Part shown: positions 3,621-27,707 of the stretch, piece by piece
Numbering within the stretch: the first letter of the stretch is position 1
How the letters are laid out: each line of letters opens with the position of its first letter
Assembly: GCA_905331485.1 (NCBI GenBank)
Contig: CAJNYT010000219.1
Location: forward strand, 1-49,272
Source: Rotaria socialis
Lineage: Eukaryota
Length of the DNA stretch: 49,272 nucleotides
Reading direction: 5' to 3'
Program-made: the position numbers and the translations under genes
The notes under the pieces: model-generated
Database searches by the model: none
The model's input: the letters and a program-made list of their open reading frames with translations, nothing else
Told to the model about the DNA's origin: nothing

Positions 3621-4127
3621 AACGATAAAAAAGGATATATAACTGTATAAATTTATCAAACAAGACTCGATGTAATACCATTTGTGTCTGAAACTGTTTT
3701 TACTTTTTTCAGAGAGCTCATATTCTAACCAAGTTTACCATTGTAAATGGTAATTAGCAACAAAGTTTAATAAGGTTATGCCATACATGGTTTTACTCAT
3801 CGATTCAAATAGTTCTCTCTCTCTCTCAAGTTAGATTAGGAAGTTCTTCTGATTAGAATTTGACTTTCTGCGTCGATTTGTACAAGCAGATTTTTCTATA
3901 GCACATAATTAGTTTCAAGTAGTACCGTTTGATCGCTCTTGGGTGTTCCTGTATTAATGGTTTTGAGCGGAACACAAATCAACATTCACATCTACAACCC
4001 ATTCGAAATATTTACAAGCCCTGTTGTTTTTTTTTGTGAAGTTTATAATAGAGGTCAATAACGACGAAAACATCACACACACAATCTTGTTTATTTAAAT
4101 CTTAATAATGTAGATTCTGGTGGGGGT

Positions 4128-4156
4128 TCTTTTCACGCATACCCTCCCCCCCCCCC
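4128..4156. repeat. G5 ... C11 homopolymer inverted pair (same G-first polarity as the telomeric junctions)
   Basis: ggtggggg ttcttttcacgcatacc ctccccccccccc. The C run of 11 is at 4146-4156. It is followed by (CT)n at about 4184-4200. Confidence 0.7.
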
Positions 4157-4279
4157 ACTAAACCCTAAATTTCTGTCTCCCCGTCTCTCTCTCTCTCTCT
4201 GTGTTGTCGATAAATCAATATGTAGTCTTGTTTTTAACAGTAGCATCCAGTCAAAACTAGTGTGATAGTATTTCGGTGA

Positions 4280-5362
4280 TCAAATTGATCTATCTATTAC
4301 TTGGTTGTTTCTTGGGCCTGTACCTATCAGCACCACAGGAATGCCTGTTTCACGTTCCATCATTTCTATATACTGCTTGGATTTTTCTGAAAGCTGATCA
4401 TATTGTGTGATACCAGCATCATCATAGTTGATATACTGTATGAAGTTAACTGCCAATTTGTTAACACCTGTCAGTTTCACTGCACGTTTGATACGATTCA
4501 CATCAATTTCAAATACCCGTCGTAATTTCTTAGTAACAGTTGTTAATTCTTTCGAAGAAAATGTCCCAATAGGGGCACCTGCTCGTTGTTCTACTTCTTC
4601 CCATGTGATTTCTTTTCCACCATCCCCTGAATATGCTTCACCTCCATCAGATTTAGCCATGTCATTAGAAATACGAATTGGATATGTACGAATGACACCA
4701 TAGATATCTCGAATATGTTTCGGAGGAATACCGTTATCTGAAAGTCCTTGCATTGGTGAACATTCTCTGCTGGTACAATGTGGATATTGAAAACCATGAT
4801 TAATACCTAATTCAAAACCTTGTGCTATTTCTAAAATACCTGTTTTTCCTTGTTCCAAATCATCGCAAGCCATTTCAGCTGTGTCTGCCAAAAAATTCGA
4901 CCACTCTCGAATGTCATGCATTAATTTATGATCTGGATGCCGCATTACTTTGAATGCACTAGCTGCACCAACACCTTTAAATGTACTTCCAGAGCGTATA
5001 TTCTCCTTTTCCCAATCACGATGTGTTTGTTGGATAACCGATGCTCTTGGATGAATAAAAAGACGGCCTTTTGCTTTTTCTTTGCCGCCAAGATACTGAT
5101 CAACTTCATTTTCAAGCTGTACCAAATCGATAACAGCGCCAGCACCTATATATAATTTCGTACTATCATTAATTAACGCTTGTGGCAACTGTTGGAAAAC
5201 ATATTTGGTGCCATCTTGTTTTATTACCGTATGACCTGCTTGTACACCATAGCTTTCAATAGCAAAATCATATTTGTGCTTTGTAGCTAAATATCCACCA
5301 ATAAGTCCTTTCCCGCACGATCCAAAGCAGAGATCAAGAATAATATCCAACGATCGTTCCAT
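4280..5362 (-). CDS. Adenylosuccinate synthetase family protein, short form (360 aa), PurA/PurZ-like, intronless
   Basis: Uninterrupted ATG..TGA ORF. By-eye alignment to E. coli PurA (query / PurA):
- LDLCFGSCGKG / LGTQWGDEGKGK (P-loop)
- QAGHT / NAGHT
- GSTFKGVG / GTTGRGIG
- EIAQGFELGINHGFQYPHCTS / [21 protein letters not shown]
- TTVTKKLRR / ATTGRRRR
- IGTGPR / ISTGPD
The P-loop Asp is replaced (GSCGKG). The TKLD guanine-specificity motif aligns to NFIQ. Confidence 0.85.
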   Translation of the reverse strand: MERSLDIILDLCFGSCGKGLIGGYLATKHKYDFAIESYGVQAGHTVIKQDGTKYVFQQLPQALINDSTKLYIGAGAVIDLVQLENEVDQYLGGKEKAKGRLFIHPRASVIQQTHRDWEKENIRSGSTFKGVGAASAFKVMRHPDHKLMHDIREWSNFLADTAEMACDDLEQGKTGILEIAQGFELGINHGFQYPHCTSRECSPMQGLSDNGIPPKHIRDIYGVIRTYPIRISNDMAKSDGGEAYSGDGGKEITWEEVEQRAGAPIGTFSSKELTTVTKKLRRVFEIDVNRIKRAVKLTGVNKLAVNFIQYINYDDAGITQYDQLSEKSKQYIEMMERETGIPVVLIGTGPRNNQVIDRSI

Positions 5363-6470: not shown

Positions 6471-6850
6471 TCCGTATCACCAATATCAGTAACTTTATTT
6501 TTATATTTAATTAGACGGGCAATTTTCTTACTCATCGCATTTACCTATTCTTTTTCTTCTTCTCCATTAATAGACAAATATACTATATGTCTTTTACTTT
6601 TACTGACCGAAAACACAACACATGTAACATATGTTATTCGATGTCTATACAGATAATGAGGATAGAAATGCAAAAAAAAGAGAAAGAATTGGGGAATATA
6701 TGCTATCAATTGGGACACTTTCTCTTCTTTTCTCTAGTATATGTGTCTATTAATGGAGAACAAGAAAAATAATAGGTAAATACGATGAGTAAGAAAGTTG
6801 CACCATCATATTAAATAAGAACAAGAAAATTACTGATATAAGCGATACGG
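6471..6850. repeat. Fold-back inverted repeat, arms about 6471-6586 and 6735-6850, spacer about 148 bp, abutting the telomeric junction at 6864
   Basis: The reverse complement of the right arm (tccgtatcgcttatatcagtaatttt...cttactcatcgtatttacctattatttttcttgttctccattaatagacacatatacta) matches the left arm (tccgtatcaccaatatcagtaacttt...cttactcatcgcatttacctattctttttcttcttctccattaatagacaaatatacta). Confidence 0.8.
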
Positions 6851-6958: not shown

Positions 6959-7575
6959 TGGTATTGCACGAAGTCTAGCACACTTCGAAACTTCTAAATG
7001 GTTTCACTCGTTAGTATGATTATAAATGCTTCTTTTGAAAGAGGTGAATAATAAACCCTTCTAATCAAAATATGATATTTACAACTCTAACTCTTAATTC
7101 TGTCTCATTTTTTTATGATGTACATTAAATAGATCAAAAAATGAGCATTGAAAAATATTTTAAAGACAAAAAGAAAATATTATTAAAATTCGAATAAAGA
7201 ACACTTGCCGAATTTAACCTTACAAATTCCACTGTTAAGCCACACATTTGCATTATGTTTGAAGAAAACAAATAAAATTTAAAATGAACATCTGGTTTAT
7301 TGAATATGTGAGTGAGAGAAAAGACAGCGCATAACTTATTTGTTAAACTGATAGATTGAAAAAAAAGAAAACCCTTAAAATGATCACTCTATCAATAAGT
7401 ATATGAATGCAGTGACGAATTCGAAAGTACCAAAAATTGGTAACATGCAGTAGAACGCATAGGCGCAGAAATTATTCAAAAATTGGATAGTCACTACATA
7501 ACAATTTTCGGGATTATATGCAAGCAGGTAACACAAAATATAAACATATCGTAAATTAAAAACACTAATAATAAA

Positions 7576-9954
7576 TTAGACTTCTTTAAATAATATTCCG
7601 TAGGGTCGAACATTCTGTGAATTGTTACACGTCCATATATCTCGATTGTGCTTTGCGATCGAACTATTATTAATTCTCACTTGAAACATAACTTGCAATT
7701 GTCGGCCATTGTATGGTGTTGGCCTAGAGTAGTGTCTACTCCCGGAATATGATGGATTAGGCGATAAATATATGCCTCGACCATGAGCAGAACCATTAAC
7801 AATAGGTATCCCATTACTACCTCCAGCAATTAAACCATTACGTAGTATAGCTAAAGCATTGGCAGTTGCAGTACCATGATAAGCTACAGGCCATGCATCT
7901 TTGCCCTCCGCTAGCCATTCAGCATTTTCATATTTTCCAAGTACTTTAATAGCCTTTCTATACCATCCGCATGGCCTTGTATAAGGTTCTGGTCCACGTT
8001 GAAAAGTTCGACCGGCATCATTTCTTGTTGTAAAATCGTAGTCGTAAGTGCTATCAAGAAACTCTTCATCTAGCATAACACGATTTACAAAACGATTAGT
8101 CCGAGCAGTAGCACTTGAAAAATGTGGAATATAAGCTGCAATTGAACTCTGATTGTATTGATAAAATCGAACGTTTTGATCATCTTCCCATCGATTTATA
8201 TCATTATCAATATTCCAATAACTTAATCGAATACTTTCAGGACATGTATATTCAGATGGTTCATTTATTATTAATAGTGGACAATGCTCTTTTTTATCAC
8301 TAAATTGAATATGATCAGCTTTGAAATGAATAACTGATATAATTCGATTATAATTTTCTTCTAATGTTCCTTTGTCCGGTACATAATCTTCGTTTTTCCA
8401 TACAGTATTTGGTAAGGATTTACTTACTACGGACTTTGATTCTGATTCTTGTGCTATTTTATATTCCATTATTCGAGAAGAATAATACATAACAGCATTA
8501 CTTTCATACATATCAGCCTTTTCACACTGAGGACACTTTATTTTTACAGTAGAATTAGACTCTTGTTTAATGGTTGATGTTAGTTTATCATTTAATCTTT
8601 TACAGCACTGGTAACAAAATAAAGCTGAACAATTTGGATTAAGACATAATCTATGTTTTTCAGGTATTAAACGACAATATAAACATTCTAAAGCCGAAGT
8701 TCCTTCCATTTCAAATTTATCAATAATTTTTGATTTACGGTATTCTGATAATCGAACTTTCTTGTAACATGTTGGACAATGATGTTCATGATTTGTATTA
8801 TCACAACTGGATTCAATACAAATGCGACAAAATACTTGTGTACAATATGGGCATTCTAAATTATCATCATTAAGTTGTGATAAACAATTTAGACATTCAG
8901 GTTTATCTATGAAAATTAATGAAGATGTTGACGGTTTATTAATTAAAGTAGCTGAATTAAAATCCGTTTCAACTGCTTGTGCTAAATTAGTTTCATTGGA
9001 TGGCGTTTCTTTTTTTGAGGATATAATTGGATTTGACTGAGTAGGATTTATTTTCTTAATGTTAACTTTATCAATCTGATTATTCAATTCATTGATTTTT
9101 GTTGATATCTTCATCCAATTGCATGATGATTTTAAATTATCGATCAAGAAATCGTTGCTCCCAATAGAAATTGTTGTTGATTTTTTATTTCCAATTGTTT
9201 GTTTTGCTTGCTGGGCGGATTTAATCACATTGATGGTCTCAACTGGAAACATTAAAATAATTGTATTATTATCCAATCGAGCTTCACATTCATAATTTAT
9301 TATAGCAAATTTATCCTTATTGATGTCTGAAACTTTTTGACAGCGATCACTAGGTTGGACTGCATTAATCTGAGATGACCCTATATCTCCGTCGACGATA
9401 GTATCAGGCTGAATATTAAATTTTAATTGAACAATAGAACCAGGATTAATTCCTAAATCCAACATTGGAATATATGCATTTTTATTTAATGAGTAATATT
9501 TTCCATTAGCCATAATTCCTTGCGCATAGCGACCGTCGCAACATCTTACTTTACAAAATTGAGATAACAATAAACGATCATAGGGTAATGCTATTAATAA
9601 TGGATAATCATATATTTGGACTGATTTGAACATGGCCGTTTTTATTAATTTAATATGTGACACGTCAGCATTAGCTGAAATGAATATTTTTTCTAGTAAT
9701 TCAAAGTAATTTTCTACATTCATTGTAATTTTTTCTGATAAATGATTAGTTTGAATCATTTTACCAATATGTTGACATAATTTATTATATCTGAGTGGAT
9801 GAATTAATTGGGACGAAGGAATAATTCCCATTTTAATTTCAGTTATTGGCCAATATCTGAGATCTTGATCTTTACTAACAGCGCTAATAGGTTTATTATA
9901 ATCAGAATTTTCACTTTCTAATTGATTAGTGTTATCGGCAATTAAATGAAACAT
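7576..9954 (-). CDS. 792-aa protein: two Cys/His zinc-finger modules (RING/IBR-like) plus a C-terminal ADP-ribosyltransferase-fold (H-Y type, PARP/NEURL4-like) domain
   Basis: Single uninterrupted ORF starting at ATG.
- Zinc modules: CLNCLSQLNDDNLECPYCTQVFCRICIESSCDNTNHEHHCPTCYKK and CLYCRLIPEKHRLCLNPNCSALFCYQCCKRL...KCPQCEK.
- C-terminus: RPCGWYRKAIKVLGKYENAEWLAEGKDAWPVAYHGTATANALAILRNGL...AHGRGIYLSPNPSYS...VRPYGILFKEV. This shows the His (xYHGT) and Tyr (GxGIYxS) signatures of the PARP-type ART fold. Confidence 0.65.
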   Translation of the reverse strand: MFHLIADNTNQLESENSDYNKPISAVSKDQDLRYWPITEIKMGIIPSSQLIHPLRYNKLCQHIGKMIQTNHLSEKITMNVENYFELLEKIFISANADVSHIKLIKTAMFKSVQIYDYPLLIALPYDRLLLSQFCKVRCCDGRYAQGIMANGKYYSLNKNAYIPMLDLGINPGSIVQLKFNIQPDTIVDGDIGSSQINAVQPSDRCQKVSDINKDKFAIINYECEARLDNNTIILMFPVETINVIKSAQQAKQTIGNKKSTTISIGSNDFLIDNLKSSCNWMKISTKINELNNQIDKVNIKKINPTQSNPIISSKKETPSNETNLAQAVETDFNSATLINKPSTSSLIFIDKPECLNCLSQLNDDNLECPYCTQVFCRICIESSCDNTNHEHHCPTCYKKVRLSEYRKSKIIDKFEMEGTSALECLYCRLIPEKHRLCLNPNCSALFCYQCCKRLNDKLTSTIKQESNSTVKIKCPQCEKADMYESNAVMYYSSRIMEYKIAQESESKSVVSKSLPNTVWKNEDYVPDKGTLEENYNRIISVIHFKADHIQFSDKKEHCPLLIINEPSEYTCPESIRLSYWNIDNDINRWEDDQNVRFYQYNQSSIAAYIPHFSSATARTNRFVNRVMLDEEFLDSTYDYDFTTRNDAGRTFQRGPEPYTRPCGWYRKAIKVLGKYENAEWLAEGKDAWPVAYHGTATANALAILRNGLIAGGSNGIPIVNGSAHGRGIYLSPNPSYSGSRHYSRPTPYNGRQLQVMFQVRINNSSIAKHNRDIWTCNNSQNVRPYGILFKEV

Positions 9955-10016
9955 AATTAATTGTAAAACTGAAATGGACTCATTTTCTGATAATAGTGTT
10001 TTTGATTCTTTACGTT

Positions 10017-10688
10017 CTAATAATAATAATCGGATTTATGAATAATTAATAATCGAAATGGTGGTAATGCAACACGATTTAATCGAAAAGAAAGTTTTAA
10101 AATTTCTTCGTATAATTCTTTTGCTTCATTTTCTAATGAAATCATTATATTTTCATATACTAATACATAATCAGCAAGATCAACAGGTATTGTGTCAATG
10201 TTATCACTATATAGTATAGTGGATAATATCAGATGAGCTGCACCAATAGTCATAGATTTCGGCAACCAAATCGATTTTAATTGACTATTTTTTGTTGTAG
10301 AAGATAATGAATTTAATGATTTAACTGAATAAATTTCATATTTAACCATACCAGCATCAGTGGTCTGATTTATATTATTAACAGTAATAAAATTACTAAA
10401 AGTTGTATAGAGATCATTGACAAATTCGTGTAAGATTGGATTGCCTTTTAAGTCTAAGACTTTTGTTTGTGCTTGTTGTTGAGATTTCTCAATTGTTTCT
10501 TTAACTATTTTACCGTGATCTTTTGATGAAAATGAATTAAAACAATACTTTTCACTTTCAAATAATGCTTTTAATATATTGACAGTTGTTGGGGTGTCAT
10601 AGATAATATTACTTATTGTGTTGTTTCGGTTATTCGCATTAAGATCATTAGTATCGCTTTGATTGGGAACAGTGGAGGAATTACCCAT
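10017..10688 (-). CDS. 223-aa protein of unknown function with an N-terminal myristoylation-type motif (MGNSSTV)
   Basis: ATG-initiated ORF on the same strand as the zinc-finger-ART gene, ending 62 nt upstream of it. No domain recognised by eye. Gly2 plus Thr6 fits the MGxxxS/T pattern. Confidence 0.45.
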   Translation of the reverse strand: MGNSSTVPNQSDTNDLNANNRNNTISNIIYDTPTTVNILKALFESEKYCFNSFSSKDHGKIVKETIEKSQQQAQTKVLDLKGNPILHEFVNDLYTTFSNFITVNNINQTTDAGMVKYEIYSVKSLNSLSSTTKNSQLKSIWLPKSMTIGAAHLILSTILYSDNIDTIPVDLADYVLVYENIMISLENEAKELYEEILKLSFRLNRVALPPFRLLIIHKSDYYY

Positions 10689-11449
10689 TTTTTATTCGTT
10701 CGTAGGCAGAAAATCTGAAATTGTAGTCAAACTATAAAAGTAATACTAACATCGGATTAACTATAAAAATTTTGTGCTAATGATTCGAACAGAAACTCTT
10801 CTAATCGTCGTCCTTCTTCTATCTTAAGAAATTAAAAGACAAAAAGACCGCTTGATAACAGATAAAGAAGAATATTAAAATAAATAGAAGGATGTTTTCA
10901 TATTATCTAATCATTGCTGCTAGATCCTAATAGATATATTTGGCATTTGAATAGATAATTTTAACTTGTGTTCAATATCATATAACACTGTTGTATGGAA
11001 AAAATTTTTATTGCCAACGAAAAATCGTCAACCCACTTGTTTGAACAAGAATTTAAATATTTCAATTTTTTATTGTAGTGTTTTTTATGGGTCACCCTGT
11101 ATATAAACGAAACGAAAAGAAAAATGTAATATGAATCATTACTAACAACAAGAGACATGAAGAGAAACTCAAGGACACGCATATATAGTGAAATCTATAA
11201 TAAAGAAAGTACCAATAGTCTCCTCTGAACACAGTACAGATCATAACTATCTAATATAGATGAATAAATTATGAATATATCAGTGGCTGGCATGTGTAAG
11301 ATTTGCATAACTTGATGCAACCTAATTCACATATTCTTCAGTTCTATCTGAGTCGATTGAATGTAAAAGCTTTTCAGAATAAAGTAAAAATCATGCCAAC
11401 TTTAAAAAATTATTTCCTATGTAATGTTAACTGGCTGTCTCTTGTTTCA

Positions 11450-11508
11450 GCGGATGTGGATGTGTGTGCGCTATCTTTAACCCAGCCTACGCCCACACCC
11501 ACACACCC
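11450..11508. repeat. Inverted telomeric-repeat junction
   Basis: G-arm gcggatgtggatgtgtgtgcg (11450-11470), spacer, C-arm cgcccacacccacacaccc (11490-11508). Confidence 0.8.
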
Positions 11509-11542
11509 TTATGATACTTGACGTCTCTTATTGATCCTTGTA

Positions 11543-12551
11543 TTAGAGATCTGAGCTACGTAAACTCCAGAGTTTAATTATCCATTTGTTTGCGATTTCA
11601 TCAAAGTGGCACGATGTTACCTTAGCAGGAAAACCATCGAAAATCAAAAGTTCTTGTTCATCCGGATAATTTGAATATGGGGACATATCCAGAGAGCCGG
11701 TATCTTTTTCGAGGTCAATGACAAAAAGAAAGTTGCTGCCAAAGAATTCGGCCACGTTCGGATTAAGAGTAGTTGAGGTAAACGCCGGTAATTGGATTTT
11801 TCTTTCAGAGACAACGCATAGTCGAAATTGTTCAATTTGTTCGTTAGTCATCGTTGCTCCTCGATATACTATCATATTAGTGGGAGTAAAATTCATAGCT
11901 GAATTCAATAGTACAGCAAATGGGCCGTTTGGCCATCCATTCACCTTCTCGTTGCTTCCCCACCTTTTTCGCTTCGATTATAAATCCTTCCGCTGCCTTT
12001 TCTATCCACATCTCAAGTACTGACTGACAAGTGATACCTTTCTCCCAACCAACGCCGTAATGAGAACAAGCTTCTTGAACAAAATCAGGAGTTGTTGGTT
12101 CAATTTGCCAGTTTATGAAACTGTTCGAAGGCAAAACTGAATCTTCCAAGAAACGTTCCGCTCTTACTCGTTTCTCTCGTTCATCCTTGTTACGATCAAC
12201 TATACGTTTCACTGGCCGTTGTTTCTTTTCGTCATTATTAGAGATTTGCATAGAACGTGCAAAAACGATATGATAGTCGTCGAGAAGAGCTTCTGGTAAG
12301 CCTTGTTGGAATGCTTCTTCGATGATTTCAGTTTCTACATCGGTGTATTTTCGCCATTCAGCAGGTTCTGCAAAACAGAAAGGAAGCGCATTAGATTGCC
12401 ACAGCCACTCTATATACTGCTTGGCAATCAATGCAGTAGTAGTCATATACGCAACGACCAAACGGTAGCAGTAAAGATTAGATGTGATAGTAAAAAGAAA
12501 GAAAATGAAAGATATATTTCGTTTCATTATTGACTCTTTTTGTTGTTCCAT
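11543..12551 (-). CDS. WWE domain plus R-S-E (arginine-type) mono-ADP-ribosyltransferase, 2 exons (12551-11945, 11898-11543)
   Basis: - N-terminal part: YIEWLWQSNALPFCFAEPAEWRKYTDVETEIIEEAFQQG...YHIVFARSMQISNNDEKKQRPVKR matches the WWE pattern (W-W...W-x-Y...E-x-A...Q...R-x-V-K-R).
- C-terminal part: VYRG (Arg), FTSTT (STS) and PDEQELL (ExE) ART motifs.
- The two ORFs overlap in different frames. A 46-nt GTGAAT...TTCAG intron (11899-11944) joins them in phase, giving 963 nt = 320 aa. Confidence 0.8.
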
Positions 12552-17900: not shown

Positions 17901-18720
17901 TATTGTGCAGCGGTAGGCTTTTCATTTAAGGAAATGTGCTCCAACCGCATTAGACCATCCATACGTATAGGCTTCTGTTTTTGTTTACTTTCAATACAAA
18001 CGCCATTAGCTACAGTACGAAATAGCTGCGTAATATCTTTATTTGGCTTTGCTATGTGTTTCAATAGATGTTTGGCGAATAATCCATTTCTATCAGTAGT
18101 ATCACCATCAGAGGCAATTTGATTTGGGCTACATGCAAAGACGACGTAGCTGCCATCCGGTACTTCCATTGCATGTAAACTAATACCTTCGAGCTTCGCT
18201 AAAACAACGATACGTGATACATCTTATACGGCACAATTTTGACTAGTTTTTGCTACCAACCGTTTCTTTGCCTTTTGTTTTTTGGATAGTGTACTCGACA
18301 ACAATCTAGTATAAATACCGTCACAAAGGATGGATTTTTTTGTCTTAATTGATGAAGAGTGCGTTCGGCACAAGTACAATAATCCTCAACATCTTCATCA
18401 GATTTAATTAAATCATCATCTACGTGAGCCAAATATGTTCTGCCATTAACGTGATAGCCATGGCCAGAAAAGTAGAACATAACCAAATCGCCGTCAACGA
18501 TTGTCTCAGCAAAAGCGGATATTGTAGAGGCCATTTGTGACTTTGTAAGATCACGTGCCGTTTTTACCTGAAATTTAATATTTCGTAGCACGTTACTAAG
18601 ATCATTAGCATCATTGATACAATGACGAAGTCTATCTTCAGATTGAATATAATTCTGGTTTCCGATAACTAATGCTATTTTACGGCGAGGCCTTGAGGCA
18701 GTAGAATTCAGAGTAGCCAT
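17900..18720 (-). CDS. Caspase-fold (peptidase C14) protease, paracaspase/metacaspase-like, 2 exons (18720-18261, 18198-17900)
   Basis: - KIALVIGNQNY...NDANDLSNVLRNIKFQVKTARDLTKSQM...LVMFYFSGHGY (catalytic His).
- FILDCCR (catalytic Cys).
- Second exon: SYVVFACSPNQIASDG...NGLFAKHLLKHI.
- A 62-nt GTTGGT...TTTTAG intron (18199-18260) joins the ORFs in phase, giving 759 nt = 252 aa.
- The layout resembles the MALT1 paracaspase core (ALLIGNxxY...YYAGHGY...FLLDMCR). Confidence 0.8.
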
Positions 18721-25832: not shown

Positions 25833-27707
25833 ATGACTTCATTAACGAAAAATCTTGAAGGTCTGACTATTGTATGGCTTGATGTTGATCGTATTCATCA
25901 AAACACCGATGATTATTTTGATACGAAAAATCGTCTACGACAATGCAATAATTATATAGAAATATATCATGATCCAAATGAGTGTATTCATGGTATAATA
26001 GCGAATGGATACGTTTTTCTAATCGTTTCTGGTTCAATCTGCGAAACATTTATTCCGCTGATTTTTGAAATCAAACAGATCGTATTTATTTACGTTCTAT
26101 ATTCGGATAATCAATTGACGGACACCTGTGAACTAAAAACTATTTCAAAACTTCATGGAATATTCTCAAGTAAAAACCAACTTATTGAAAAACTGAAACA
26201 AGACGTCAAATCATATTTGAAGAGTTTGCCACTAACATGTATCGTCAATGAAAAGTCAATTCGTGCTTTAAACAAAGAATATTCTACGTTTATGTGGACT
26301 CAATTGCTTATGGACGTTTTAATTCAAATACCTCAAACAGATCGTGCAAAAATGATGATGTTAGAAGATTGCCGATTGCATTATGCTGATAATAAAGCTC
26401 AATTAGATGATATTAACGAGTTTCAAGAAAAATATGAACCAGACTTTGCAGTTTGGTGGTATACACGTGAGAGTTTCGCATATAAACAATTAAACCAAGC
26501 ACTACGTACACAAGATATTGACATTATTTTTAAATATCAATTTTTTATAAGAGATCTTTATGTACTATTGAAAGAATTATATGAAGAATCTATGCCATCC
26601 TTAGAAGAAATATCGATTGTCTACCGTGGCCAACATATCAATTGTGATGAATTGGAAAAAATAAAAAATAATGTGAACGGTCTTATTTCAATGAATTCAT
26701 TTTTATCAACAACTCGAAACAAGAATCGAGCTTTAATATCCGCCGGTGATGGTTCAAATAGGCCCTCGCTTGAATCCATCTTATTTGAAATTACGATTAA
26801 TAAAAATGTTGCTGCTAAAACTAAACCATTCGCTGACATTACAAAGATGAGTCAATTTGGCAAGGCAGAAGAAGAAATACTATTATCGATTGGAAGTATA
26901 TTCAAGATTCAGTCAGTTGAACAGTTAGCTGAAAATGCTCATGTTTGGGACGTTAAGCTAATATTAAATGAATCAGTGGTGATTAATGAAATAGACATGT
27001 TATTCAATTATTTCAAAATGAATTCAACTACAAGTATATCGAATGTCGGTACATTAGGTTTACTATTAGGAGAGATGGGAGAATATGAAAAAGCGGAAAA
27101 ATATTATCAAATGATGCTTGATGAATTATCAACAGATCATTGCGGAGTTCCAATAATATTAAATAATATGGGAGTATTATACAATGATATGGGTAATGAT
27201 GAAAAAGCATTAGAATATTATAAGAAATCATACGAAAGTTATAAAATGCAAAACGTATCAGAAAATGATCTTCTCTTAGCGAATTTATATCATAATATGG
27301 GTTCATTGTATTATGAAAATGAGTATAATAAAACAGCATTGAAATATTTTAAAAAAGCTTTTAAAATTTGTAATAATAATTCTACGCTACCCAGTCTTTT
27401 ATTATCTGCAACATTATATACAGACGTGAGTGGAATATATCAAGATAATGAAGATTCTGTTAATGCATTGGATCAGTTGCAACACACATTTGAAATCCAA
27501 AAAAGAATTCTACCATCAACTCATTTCAGAATCGCTGCAACATACAATAACATAGGAAGTGTTTATCTTTGTAAAGGAGATTATGCAAAAGCATTAGAAA
27601 ACTTTGAAATAGCCTTGAATATTGGATTAAAATCTTTGCCAGCCGATCATGAACATATTCAAACATATCGTGAAAATATAAAACATGCTAAAGAAAGAAT
27701 AAAGTAA
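25833..27707 (+). CDS. 624-aa R-S-E ADP-ribosyltransferase domain protein with C-terminal TPR repeats
   Basis: Single ATG..TAA ORF.
- ART motifs: VYRGQ (Arg), FLSTT (STS), GKAEEEILL (ExE).
- C-terminal third: repeated TPR-type units (NNMGVLYNDMGNDEKALEYYKKS, YHNMGSLYYENEYNKTALKYFKKA, YNNIGSVYLCKGDYAKALENFEIA).
- An AATAAA at 27698-27703 overlaps the end of the ORF. Confidence 0.85.
   Translation: MTSLTKNLEGLTIVWLDVDRIHQNTDDYFDTKNRLRQCNNYIEIYHDPNECIHGIIANGYVFLIVSGSICETFIPLIFEIKQIVFIYVLYSDNQLTDTCELKTISKLHGIFSSKNQLIEKLKQDVKSYLKSLPLTCIVNEKSIRALNKEYSTFMWTQLLMDVLIQIPQTDRAKMMMLEDCRLHYADNKAQLDDINEFQEKYEPDFAVWWYTRESFAYKQLNQALRTQDIDIIFKYQFFIRDLYVLLKELYEESMPSLEEISIVYRGQHINCDELEKIKNNVNGLISMNSFLSTTRNKNRALISAGDGSNRPSLESILFEITINKNVAAKTKPFADITKMSQFGKAEEEILLSIGSIFKIQSVEQLAENAHVWDVKLILNESVVINEIDMLFNYFKMNSTTSISNVGTLGLLLGEMGEYEKAEKYYQMMLDELSTDHCGVPIILNNMGVLYNDMGNDEKALEYYKKSYESYKMQNVSENDLLLANLYHNMGSLYYENEYNKTALKYFKKAFKICNNNSTLPSLLLSATLYTDVSGIYQDNEDSVNALDQLQHTFEIQKRILPSTHFRIAATYNNIGSVYLCKGDYAKALENFEIALNIGLKSLPADHEHIQTYRENIKHAKERIK

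Follow-up and report, generated by a model that had tools for sequence, protein, structure and literature searches.

The subject of this analysis is a gene in a window of 49,272 nucleotides from the bdelloid rotifer Rotaria socialis (assembly GCA_905331485.1, contig CAJNYT010000219.1, positions 1 to 49,272; the term window refers to this whole stretch). At 4280..5362 of the minus strand, with the stop codon included in the end coordinate, an intronless coding sequence starting with ATG encodes a protein of 360 amino acids. The protein is a PurZ-type homologue of adenylosuccinate synthetase (AdSS), related to enzymes of the pathway to 2-aminoadenine (Z), which has hitherto been reported only from bacterial viruses. 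The first-pass annotation of the window had put forward, as a working idea, that the gene encodes a horizontally acquired, stand-alone PurZ-like enzyme. This idea is supported by the active-site motifs, the phylogenetic tree, the residence of the gene in rotifer DNA and the ratio of non-synonymous to synonymous substitutions (dN/dS).

Family membership and active site of the rotifer protein

The protein matched the Pfam family PF00709 (Adenylsucc_synt) with an E-value of 8.3e-42 and PHROG 1211 ('2-aminooxy adenylosuccinate synthetase') with 2.9e-64, and is labelled 'Adenylosuccinate synthetase' in UniRef. When the sequences of solved structures were searched, the PurZ of Vibrio phage phiVC8 (6fm1/6fko) came first with 3e-42, followed by PurA of Pyrococcus horikoshii (1.5e-39), PurZ of cyanophage S-2L (2.7e-36) and the PurZ0 structure 7vf6 (2.6e-28). 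The human, mouse, plant, fungal, Plasmodium and E. coli enzymes gave weak partial matches in the same search. Models of bacterial-type PurA scored much lower and matched piecewise only, as illustrated by TIGR00184 with 150 bits against a cutoff of 395. The protein does not qualify as PurZ0, as archaeal-type PurA in the sense of NF003295 or as canonical eukaryotic ADSS.

The rotifer protein was aligned with PurA from E. coli and P. horikoshii, two PurZ and two PurZ0 sequences. In comparison with the 432 residues of E. coli PurA, two segments (about 70 residues) are gone, the same two as in P. horikoshii PurA, in agreement with the archaeal-like shortness pointed out at first reading. The alignment also bore out that the P-loop GDEGKGK reads GSCGKGL and that the catalytic Asp13 of E. 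coli PurA is absent. Its position in the P-loop FGSCGKGL (residues 13-20, 5303..5326, minus strand as for all motifs below) is taken by Ser15, equivalent to Ser23 of S-2L PurZ and Ser14 of phiVC8 PurZ. This Asp to Ser change was found in 100% of 147 phage PurZ and PurZ0 sequences (PMC12884076) and serves as working definition of dZ genomes (bioRxiv 10.1101/2025.10.22.683976). The catalytic His44 is retained in the motif QAGHT (residues 41-45, 5228..5242), where Gln41 stands for Asn. The aspartate-loop motif TTVTKKLRRVF (residues 274-284, 4511..4543) is in the PurZ state, the corresponding PurA motif being G(T/A)(V/T)TGRRRR(V/T)GW.

The base pocket of the phosphate donor is formed by NFIQ (residues 306-309, 4436..4447), which aligned to TKLD of E. 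coli and TMLD of P. horikoshii PurA, as the first-pass annotation had indicated for TKLD. In PurA and PurZ0 this pocket follows the guanine-specific pattern T/S-K/M-x-D, whereas the rotifer NFIQ is of the adenine type. It equals N305-F306-x-Q308 of S-2L PurZ, whose pocket for the adenine of ATP or dATP consists of N305, F306, Q308, G335 and P336 (PMC8342488). Gly349 and Pro350 in the motif GTGP (residues 347-350, 4313..4324) correspond to G335 and P336, the remaining contacts to the adenine base. The novel specificity suggested earlier as an option is therefore not needed, since NFIQ is exactly an adenine pocket of the S-2L type.

Czernecki et al. have listed the ligand contacts of S-2L PurZ, with S23, T273 and Q308 as PurZ-specific residues (PMC8342488). 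From this work, 33 positions named as ligand contacts or specificity residues were mapped onto the rotifer protein, and at 29 of them the residue of S-2L or phiVC8 PurZ is present. The other four positions carry Gln41 instead of Asn, His195 instead of Tyr, Ile231 instead of Val, and Asp234, which lies in an insertion loop. All nine positions that distinguish PurZ from PurA (S15, S126, C196, T274, K278, K279, N306, F307 and Q309) are in the PurZ state. The residues of the dGMP pocket, Ser131, Cys204 and Val241 in S-2L PurZ, correspond to S126, C196 and I231, the last being a conservative change. In the S-2L enzyme, Val241 and the adjacent insertion disfavour the 2'-OH of a ribose (PMC8342488). 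The rotifer protein displays Ile231 and a long insertion loop (ISNDMAKSDGGEAYSGDGGK) at this site (4613..4672), which is also the part of the structural model with the lowest confidence.

The AlphaFold2 model as a whole was of high quality (pLDDT 91.4, pTM 0.91), and a PurA-family fold was predicted with confidence, in line with the family assignment made at first reading. Comparison of folds failed to discriminate between PurZ and archaeal PurA: Foldseek returned TM scores of 0.85 for P. horikoshii PurA, 0.80 for phiVC8 PurZ, 0.80 for PurZ0 and 0.79 for S-2L PurZ, and the two are separated by the active-site residues alone. With P. horikoshii PurA as best match, the backbone appears archaeal-like, and it is the active site that gives the protein its PurZ character.

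The two characterised PurZ enzymes (phiVC8, 6FM1/6FKO; S-2L, 7ODX) share with the rotifer protein the short AdSS fold, Ser for the catalytic Asp, the loop TTVTK(K/L)xRR, the pocket N-F-x-(Q/N) with G-P, Cys196, Ser126 and other residues of the dGMP pocket, and an insertion following the PIR(V/I) strand. They differ in that identity is only 28-34%, in Gln41, Ile231 and the longer insertion loop of the rotifer protein, and in the archaeal-type C-terminal segment, which the rotifer protein keeps and which is shortened in phiVC8 and S-2L. PurZ0 (Gordonia phage Archimedes, 7VF6; Arthrobacter phage Wayne) has in common the Ser of the P-loop, the TTVT loop and the short fold; it departs, at 27-29% identity, in the motifs S/T-M-x-D (SMAD/TMLD) and RRVG(Q/D), as opposed to NFIQ and RRVFE. 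P. horikoshii PurA (PH0438; 5K7X/2D7U) shares the best-matching backbone (TM 0.85/0.91), the two deletions and a homologous C-terminal helix region, but the archaeal GDEGKG, GTVTGRRRRVGW and TMLD make up a catalytic Asp and a GTP pocket. With E. coli PurA and animal ADSS1/2 the superfamily is shared, and His44, Gln181, Arg141 and the GST motif are conserved. These canonical enzymes are 72-100 residues longer and carry Asp13 and TKLD; a canonical eukaryotic ADSS would be expected to have about 430-460 residues and, in an animal, a gene with introns.

Phylogenetic position and donor-type mobile elements

A HMMER search of 1.84 billion cluster representatives (50% identity) retrieved 498 proteins at E <= 1e-30. 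Among 139 aligned best representatives (of 150; 300-560 amino acids), the catalytic-Asp position is occupied by Ser with three exceptions, of which two have Gly and one is a truncated sequence; Asp occurs in none. A neighbour-joining tree of 158 sequences was calculated over 338 alignment columns, with 200 bootstrap replicates; as this is a distance method, its deeper nodes are provisional. The five rotifer sequences (two from Rotaria, three from Adineta) are monophyletic with 100% support. They group with the metagenomic proteins P0003 and P0004 (98%), and this group joins with P0005, P0006 and P0139 (100%), so that the rotifer clade is nested in a paraphyletic set of non-rotifer sequences. 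A clade of 123 members (78%) unites these sequences with phiVC8 and S-2L PurZ and leaves outside PurZ0, E. coli PurA and P. horikoshii PurA. All Ser- or Gly-type sequences are set apart from the P. horikoshii and E. coli PurA with 98% support. An ATP-type donor motif (N..N/Q/E) is displayed by 94 of the 123 clade members, whereas 34 of the 35 sequences outside have the guanine-type Asp. The tree comparison, which had been recommended with the first reading, places the protein with phiVC8 and S-2L PurZ and the PurZ0, archaeal and bacterial PurA elsewhere; the sequence evidence supports its assignment to the ATP-using PurZ clade of the AdSS family.

The nearest non-rotifer genes are 75-82% identical over the full 360 residues (P0003, P0004, P0005, P0006 and P0139; loci L006-L010 and L100). 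Three of them (P0003, P0005, P0006) lie on contigs assembled from metagenomes, 31-303 kb long and with a G+C content of 41-47%, where the genes are dense, on the same strand and in some cases overlapping. The replication side of these arrays comprises a PD-(D/E)XK exonuclease, a Sak4-like annealing protein, a DUF669 protein resembling single-stranded DNA-binding proteins, an ATPase, DUF2201, a family-A DNA polymerase (PolA) with 3'-5' exonuclease domain and at times a ribonucleotide reductase. Beside the PurZ-like gene are encoded a C5 DNA methylase, a thymidylate kinase (TMPK), an adenylate-kinase-like (ADK-like) protein and, according to domain calls, a fusion of an NDT-like domain with dUTPase (330-333 amino acids). 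The latter could be aligned over its full length with gp53 of Arthrobacter phage Wayne (E 2e-28), and the fusion protein of Wayne has been characterised as the DmtZ-DutZ enzyme of Z-genome phages (PMC12884076). The donor-type elements contain the NDT-dUTPase accessory gene typical of PurZ0 phages; PurZ0 itself falls outside the 123-member clade. Further downstream follows a Tcp-type conjugation module with TcpC, TcpE, a VirB4-like ATPase, a TrbL-like protein and an SLT/M23 cell-wall hydrolase. Taken together, the arrays resemble a complete-looking toolkit for Z-DNA, carried by an element that is either no phage or a phage-plasmid.

An array of this type occupies L006 1-21083, with similar ones in L007, L008, L010 and L100, and the C5 methylase of L006 is interrupted by an intein. 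No tRNA genes were found in the 21-kb element loci, and the element PolA had no close relative among catalogued phages. An intein or LAGLIDADG homing endonuclease also interrupts the metagenomic PurZ-like proteins P0156, P0190 and P0196 (734-798 amino acids), and P0252 has an HNH domain at its N-terminus.

In all motifs the PurZ-like proteins of the elements are identical to the rotifer protein, Gln41 and Ile231 included. The genes differ in their setting: the rotifer gene stands alone, shifted towards AT and between animal genes, whereas those of the elements are part of operon-like arrays. No close relative was detected in cultured phages (best identity 40%), in PLSDB plasmids (36%) or in species-representative genomes (44%). 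The attempt to name a donor host failed, as no species-representative relative exceeded 45% identity, and the donor lineage that can be named as likely is that of uncultured conjugative-type elements with a Z-DNA-like gene set.

The Ser-type family extends beyond these elements. Some members are located in phages. Fusions of an N-terminal NUDIX (MutT-like) domain with a Ser-type AdSS carrying the NF-Q motif (508-524 amino acids, 40-45% identity) occur in metagenome-assembled genomes of gut Clostridia, Bacilli and 'Tenericutes' (L096 10001-11539, P0067; also L021, L030, L032, L035-L038, L043, L055 and L063). No relative of PolA, DatZ or DutZ was found in the flanks examined at these fusion loci. 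On the Agrobacterium fabrum plasmid pAt1D132a (L101 1-8732), a 533-residue fusion of an AAA_18/ADK-like kinase with a Ser-type AdSS precedes a DUF7002 gene. In similar bacterial kinase-AdSS fusions of 523-551 amino acids (P0183, P0240, P0266, P0273, P0292) the motif reads TFAD or TFVD and is thus of the guanine type.

Domestication in bdelloids and predicted activity

The encoded protein is identical to annotated R. socialis proteins (CAF3338393.1 and others) on nine contigs of up to 181 kb. Copies in R. magnacalcarata are at least 90% identical and those in Adineta ricciae 83%. The window is AT-rich (34% G+C) and encodes PARP (two genes), WWE, caspase, TPR_12 and VIT-VWA domains (7576-12551, 18253-18720, 25833-27707 and 34809-36711). 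In A. ricciae, the gene is situated 260 kb into a contig of 456 kb, among intron-bearing genes for JmjC, protein-kinase and PDZD8-like proteins. This demonstrates that the gene resides in rotifer DNA, and contamination is untenable.

Pairwise Nei-Gojobori comparison of the copies from R. socialis, A. ricciae and a third bdelloid contig (L011) gave dN/dS values of 0.088-0.103 at dS 0.9-1.2; the rows of L008, which have a one-codon offset, were left out of the set. The rotifer copies have been under strong purifying selection since the lineages split: a dN/dS of about 0.09 at a dS of about 1 excludes neutral drift and speaks clearly against pseudogene decay, which the first-pass annotation had named as an explanation of the substitutions that would speak against its idea. 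The G+C content at third codon positions (GC3) is 15-29% in the rotifer copies and 37-53% in the element copies, and the low values fit a long stay in an AT-rich genome. Between five rotifer and five element sequences only three differences are fixed (C12/S, R115/K and R358/L), none of them at a listed ligand contact. Given that the peculiar Gln41 and Ile231 are also common to both groups, the rotifer enzyme most likely retains whatever activity the element enzyme has. Linkage to animal genes, nesting among element sequences, host-like composition and purifying selection all characterise a horizontally acquired and domesticated bdelloid gene.

On these grounds, the locus probably carries a functional PurZ-clade gene that goes back to a single transfer, before the split of Rotaria and Adineta, from an uncultured lineage of large, conjugative-type bacterial elements with a Z-DNA-like gene set, and whose product is predicted to convert dGMP, aspartate and ATP to the precursor of dZMP. 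Judging from homology and residue conservation, the enzyme would bind dGMP, the O6 of which would be phosphorylated by ATP or dATP with involvement of the adenine pocket (NF-Q/GP) and Ser15 of the P-loop. L-aspartate, held by the TTVTKK loop, would then displace the phosphate to give N6-succino-2-amino-2'-deoxyadenylate (dSMP). No special enzymes would be needed from there on, as adenylosuccinate lyase and nucleotide kinases of the rotifer itself could yield dZMP, dZDP and dZTP. In phage hosts, adenylosuccinate lyase and nucleotide kinases finish the pathway, and most polymerases accept dZTP and do not discriminate between Z and A (PMC8342488). Yeast equipped with PurZ, a dATPase and DUF550 incorporates Z into its own DNA (PMC13128860). 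For the product of the rotifer enzyme, the nucleotide pool, entry into DNA and a role in defence are conceivable fates.

Several observations weigh against this interpretation. The protein scored 218.1 bits (residues 6-297) with the NCBIfam PurZ model NF038379, under its cutoff of 300 bits, which is the annotation threshold of a narrow 'exception'-type model and no biochemical criterion, and practically tied with the archaeal PurA model NF003295 (218.3 bits, cutoff 368). The predicted backbone is slightly nearer to P. horikoshii PurA than to phiVC8 PurZ. Support is moderate (78%), in a distance tree, for the node at which the protein joins phiVC8 and S-2L PurZ. Where 96% of related sequences have Asn, the rotifer protein has Gln41, a change common only to the clade of donor-type elements, and the insertion loop, with 20 residues, exceeds the length found in characterised PurZ enzymes. 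The Ser-type family is functionally heterogeneous: at least one NUDIX-AdSS fusion is encoded amid the chromosomal housekeeping genes DisA, MutS2, RuvX and IreB, and the kinase-AdSS fusion of A. fabrum has upstream of it Gabija-type genes resembling GajA and GajB as well as one for a PUA-like metallophosphoesterase, an arrangement which may represent an unrecognised defence system. The Z-DNA status of the elements themselves is read from gene content only. Finally, the gene was found in only three named bdelloid species in the protein collection (R. socialis, R. magnacalcarata and A. ricciae), so that retention may be patchy.

Partner genes constitute another point of this kind. The first reading had recognised no DatZ-, MazZ- or DpoZ-like partner in the flanks, and this was upheld by tblastn at E <= 1. 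Searches for DatZ, MazZ, PrimPol, DpoZ-type PolA, DmtZ-DutZ, the whole L006 gene set and a NUDIX domain gave nothing above noise in the window, in the almost identical contig L003 and in three Adineta-type loci (L004, L005, L011). No partner that removes dATP or supplies dGMP (DatZ, MazZ, DutZ, DmtZ, DpoZ) was thus present at the rotifer loci examined. The element NDT-dUTPase fusion, compared with 5.8 billion proteins, had matches of the element type only and no rotifer homologue, and PADLOC reported no match for the rotifer protein. Co-transfer of partner genes was rejected, since both the tblastn of the rotifer loci and the protein search were negative. The association with partners of the Z pathway is hence seen only in the closest non-rotifer relatives. 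Where nothing removes dATP, any incorporation of Z must compete with it. In E. coli, incomplete Z-clusters lead to lower substitution rates; together with the missing partners, this lets a pool of Z nucleotides and at most low-level incorporation be expected in the rotifer.

The alternative that survives best, although it appears unlikely to us, is that the enzyme is real and horizontally acquired but acts on another substrate, for instance as an ATP-dependent enzyme on GMP, IMP or dIMP in purine interconversion or salvage, or in the synthesis of a small-molecule nucleotide, and not in that of dZ precursors. It draws on the replaced Asn, on the long ribose-site loop with its low model confidence, on the PurZ score under the cutoff and on the non-phage settings of the NUDIX and kinase fusions, to which may be added that relatives of PolA, DatZ, MazZ and DutZ are missing from the flanks (up to 10 kb) of 79 of 80 loci in species-representative genomes. 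It is opposed by the PurZ state of all nine discriminating residues and by Ile231, whose side chain is larger than that of the Val to which a clash with the 2'-OH is ascribed (PMC8342488). Moreover, Gln41 and Ile231 are common to the element clade, whose cluster of PolA, NDT-dUTPase and kinases typifies Z-genome phages, and the active site did not change after the transfer.

An ordinary rotifer AdSS converting IMP, aspartate and GTP, or a redundant copy of it that has become divergent in look, is very improbable. Membership in PF00709 and the UniRef name would suit it, but both the catalytic and the guanine-binding Asp are replaced, TIGR00184 stays far under its cutoff and the search of the structure database ranked the animal, plant, fungal and Plasmodium enzymes with the weaker matches. 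In addition, no Asp was seen among the best cluster representatives aligned, and the closest relatives are located on bacterial mobile elements. Bacterial or phage contamination of the assembly, or a dead insertion drifting neutrally, could appeal to the missing introns and to the close relatives on prokaryote-type environmental metagenome contigs, and is effectively rejected by the animal genes of the AT-rich window and around the A. ricciae copy, the nine R. socialis contigs, the 100% rotifer clade, the low GC3 and the dN/dS.

With the dGMP-directed PurZ as preferred explanation, it is a tentative further step that bdelloids make 2-aminoadenine deoxynucleotides in vivo with the domesticated enzyme, and that the product enters DNA or arms the animal against viruses, transposons or other invaders. 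If this were true, natural production of Z would, with the bdelloids, be known for the first time from cellular organisms, and from animals. PurZ surveys located in the literature deal with viral, bacterial and archaeal sequences only, and a full-text search found no relevant paper joining PurZ with rotifers, bdelloids with adenylosuccinate, or PurZ with eukaryotes. What is new here is a PurZ-clade enzyme that stands alone, domesticated and selectively maintained in an animal, for which synthesis of Z nucleotides may thereby be within reach. That purifying selection acts in two or more bdelloid genera, and that the mapped contacts have not changed since the transfer, suggests that this animal lineage kept the step committing to the Z pathway while it diversified. 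The questions raised are whether Z occurs naturally in eukaryotic cells, whether a solitary PurZ can have a selectable function where dATP is not removed, and whether DNA modification, control of the nucleotide pool or immunity is concerned. The gene would be a striking addition to horizontal gene transfer in bdelloids and points to previously unnoticed large conjugative-type elements with a Z-DNA-like toolkit as its donor.

Other features of the rotifer loci

The upstream neighbour of the PurZ-type gene is a PARP-domain gene (7576..10688, minus strand), for which the NCBI model gives a product of 1037 amino acids. Splicing is implied, since the longest uninterrupted reading frames are of 792 and 223 amino acids only. 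A possible intron candidate (GTAAAG...TTTCAG, 10013-9969) sits after an in-frame stop. In A. ricciae, the models of the flanking genes cover far more DNA than their products require. The contrast drawn at first reading between an intronless gene and intron-bearing neighbours therefore holds.

Downstream of the stop codon, at a distance of 185 nucleotides, an AATAAA hexamer (4090..4095, minus strand) may act as polyadenylation signal, although this is weak evidence. The presumed 3' untranslated region between the two contains a (GA)n repeat and a stretch of about 11 G residues (4135-4200, minus strand). The gene is flanked by inverted repeats. On one side, arms at 2170-2355 and 2589-2774 (186 nucleotides, 88% complementary) come with a nested pair (2377-2431 and 2542-2596), and on the other side a second repeat has arms at 6519-6585 and 6735-6801 (67 nucleotides, 93%). 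These repeats at 2170-2774 and 6519-6801 may be foldback elements or resemble miniature inverted-repeat transposable elements. About 87 bp at 7468-7554 are missing from an otherwise 99.9% identical contig (L003; CBCPMT020001028.1, GCA_965120315.2), an assembly or haplotype indel.

Outside the gene, no synteny was observed between the Rotaria window and the Adineta loci. The R. magnacalcarata model P0131 (953 amino acids) fuses the PurZ-like reading frame with a downstream gene of 597 amino acids (P0122) and is probably an annotation artefact. A tblastn search of the R. socialis window with P0122 was negative, so that the gene must have another downstream neighbour there.

In Adineta-type bdelloids (L004 6153-11083; L005 3307-6624; L011 1762-5670), the PurZ-like gene is arranged head-to-head with a multi-exon gene of the thymidylate-kinase family (P0308, P-loop EGIDGVGKTT), an arrangement not present in the Rotaria window. 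This neighbour may resemble animal CMPK2; a homologue search returned close rotifer-type relatives only, and the structure database nothing. Its co-transfer from the donor was rejected, as identity to the element TMPK is about 22%. In L011, a multi-exon deoxynucleoside-kinase gene (PF01712) comes next, while the A. ricciae model shows a faint deoxynucleoside-kinase signal only. The possible role in defence mentioned above would fit this kinase neighbourhood and the PARP, caspase and TPR genes of the window.

The PARP, WWE, caspase, TPR_12 and VIT-VWA genes of the window have, as a set, a stress- or defence-related flavour. An intronless reading frame of 358 amino acids (28479-29555, minus strand) matched EryCIII-like and UDP-glycosyltransferase domains and may be another bacterial-type acquisition in the window.

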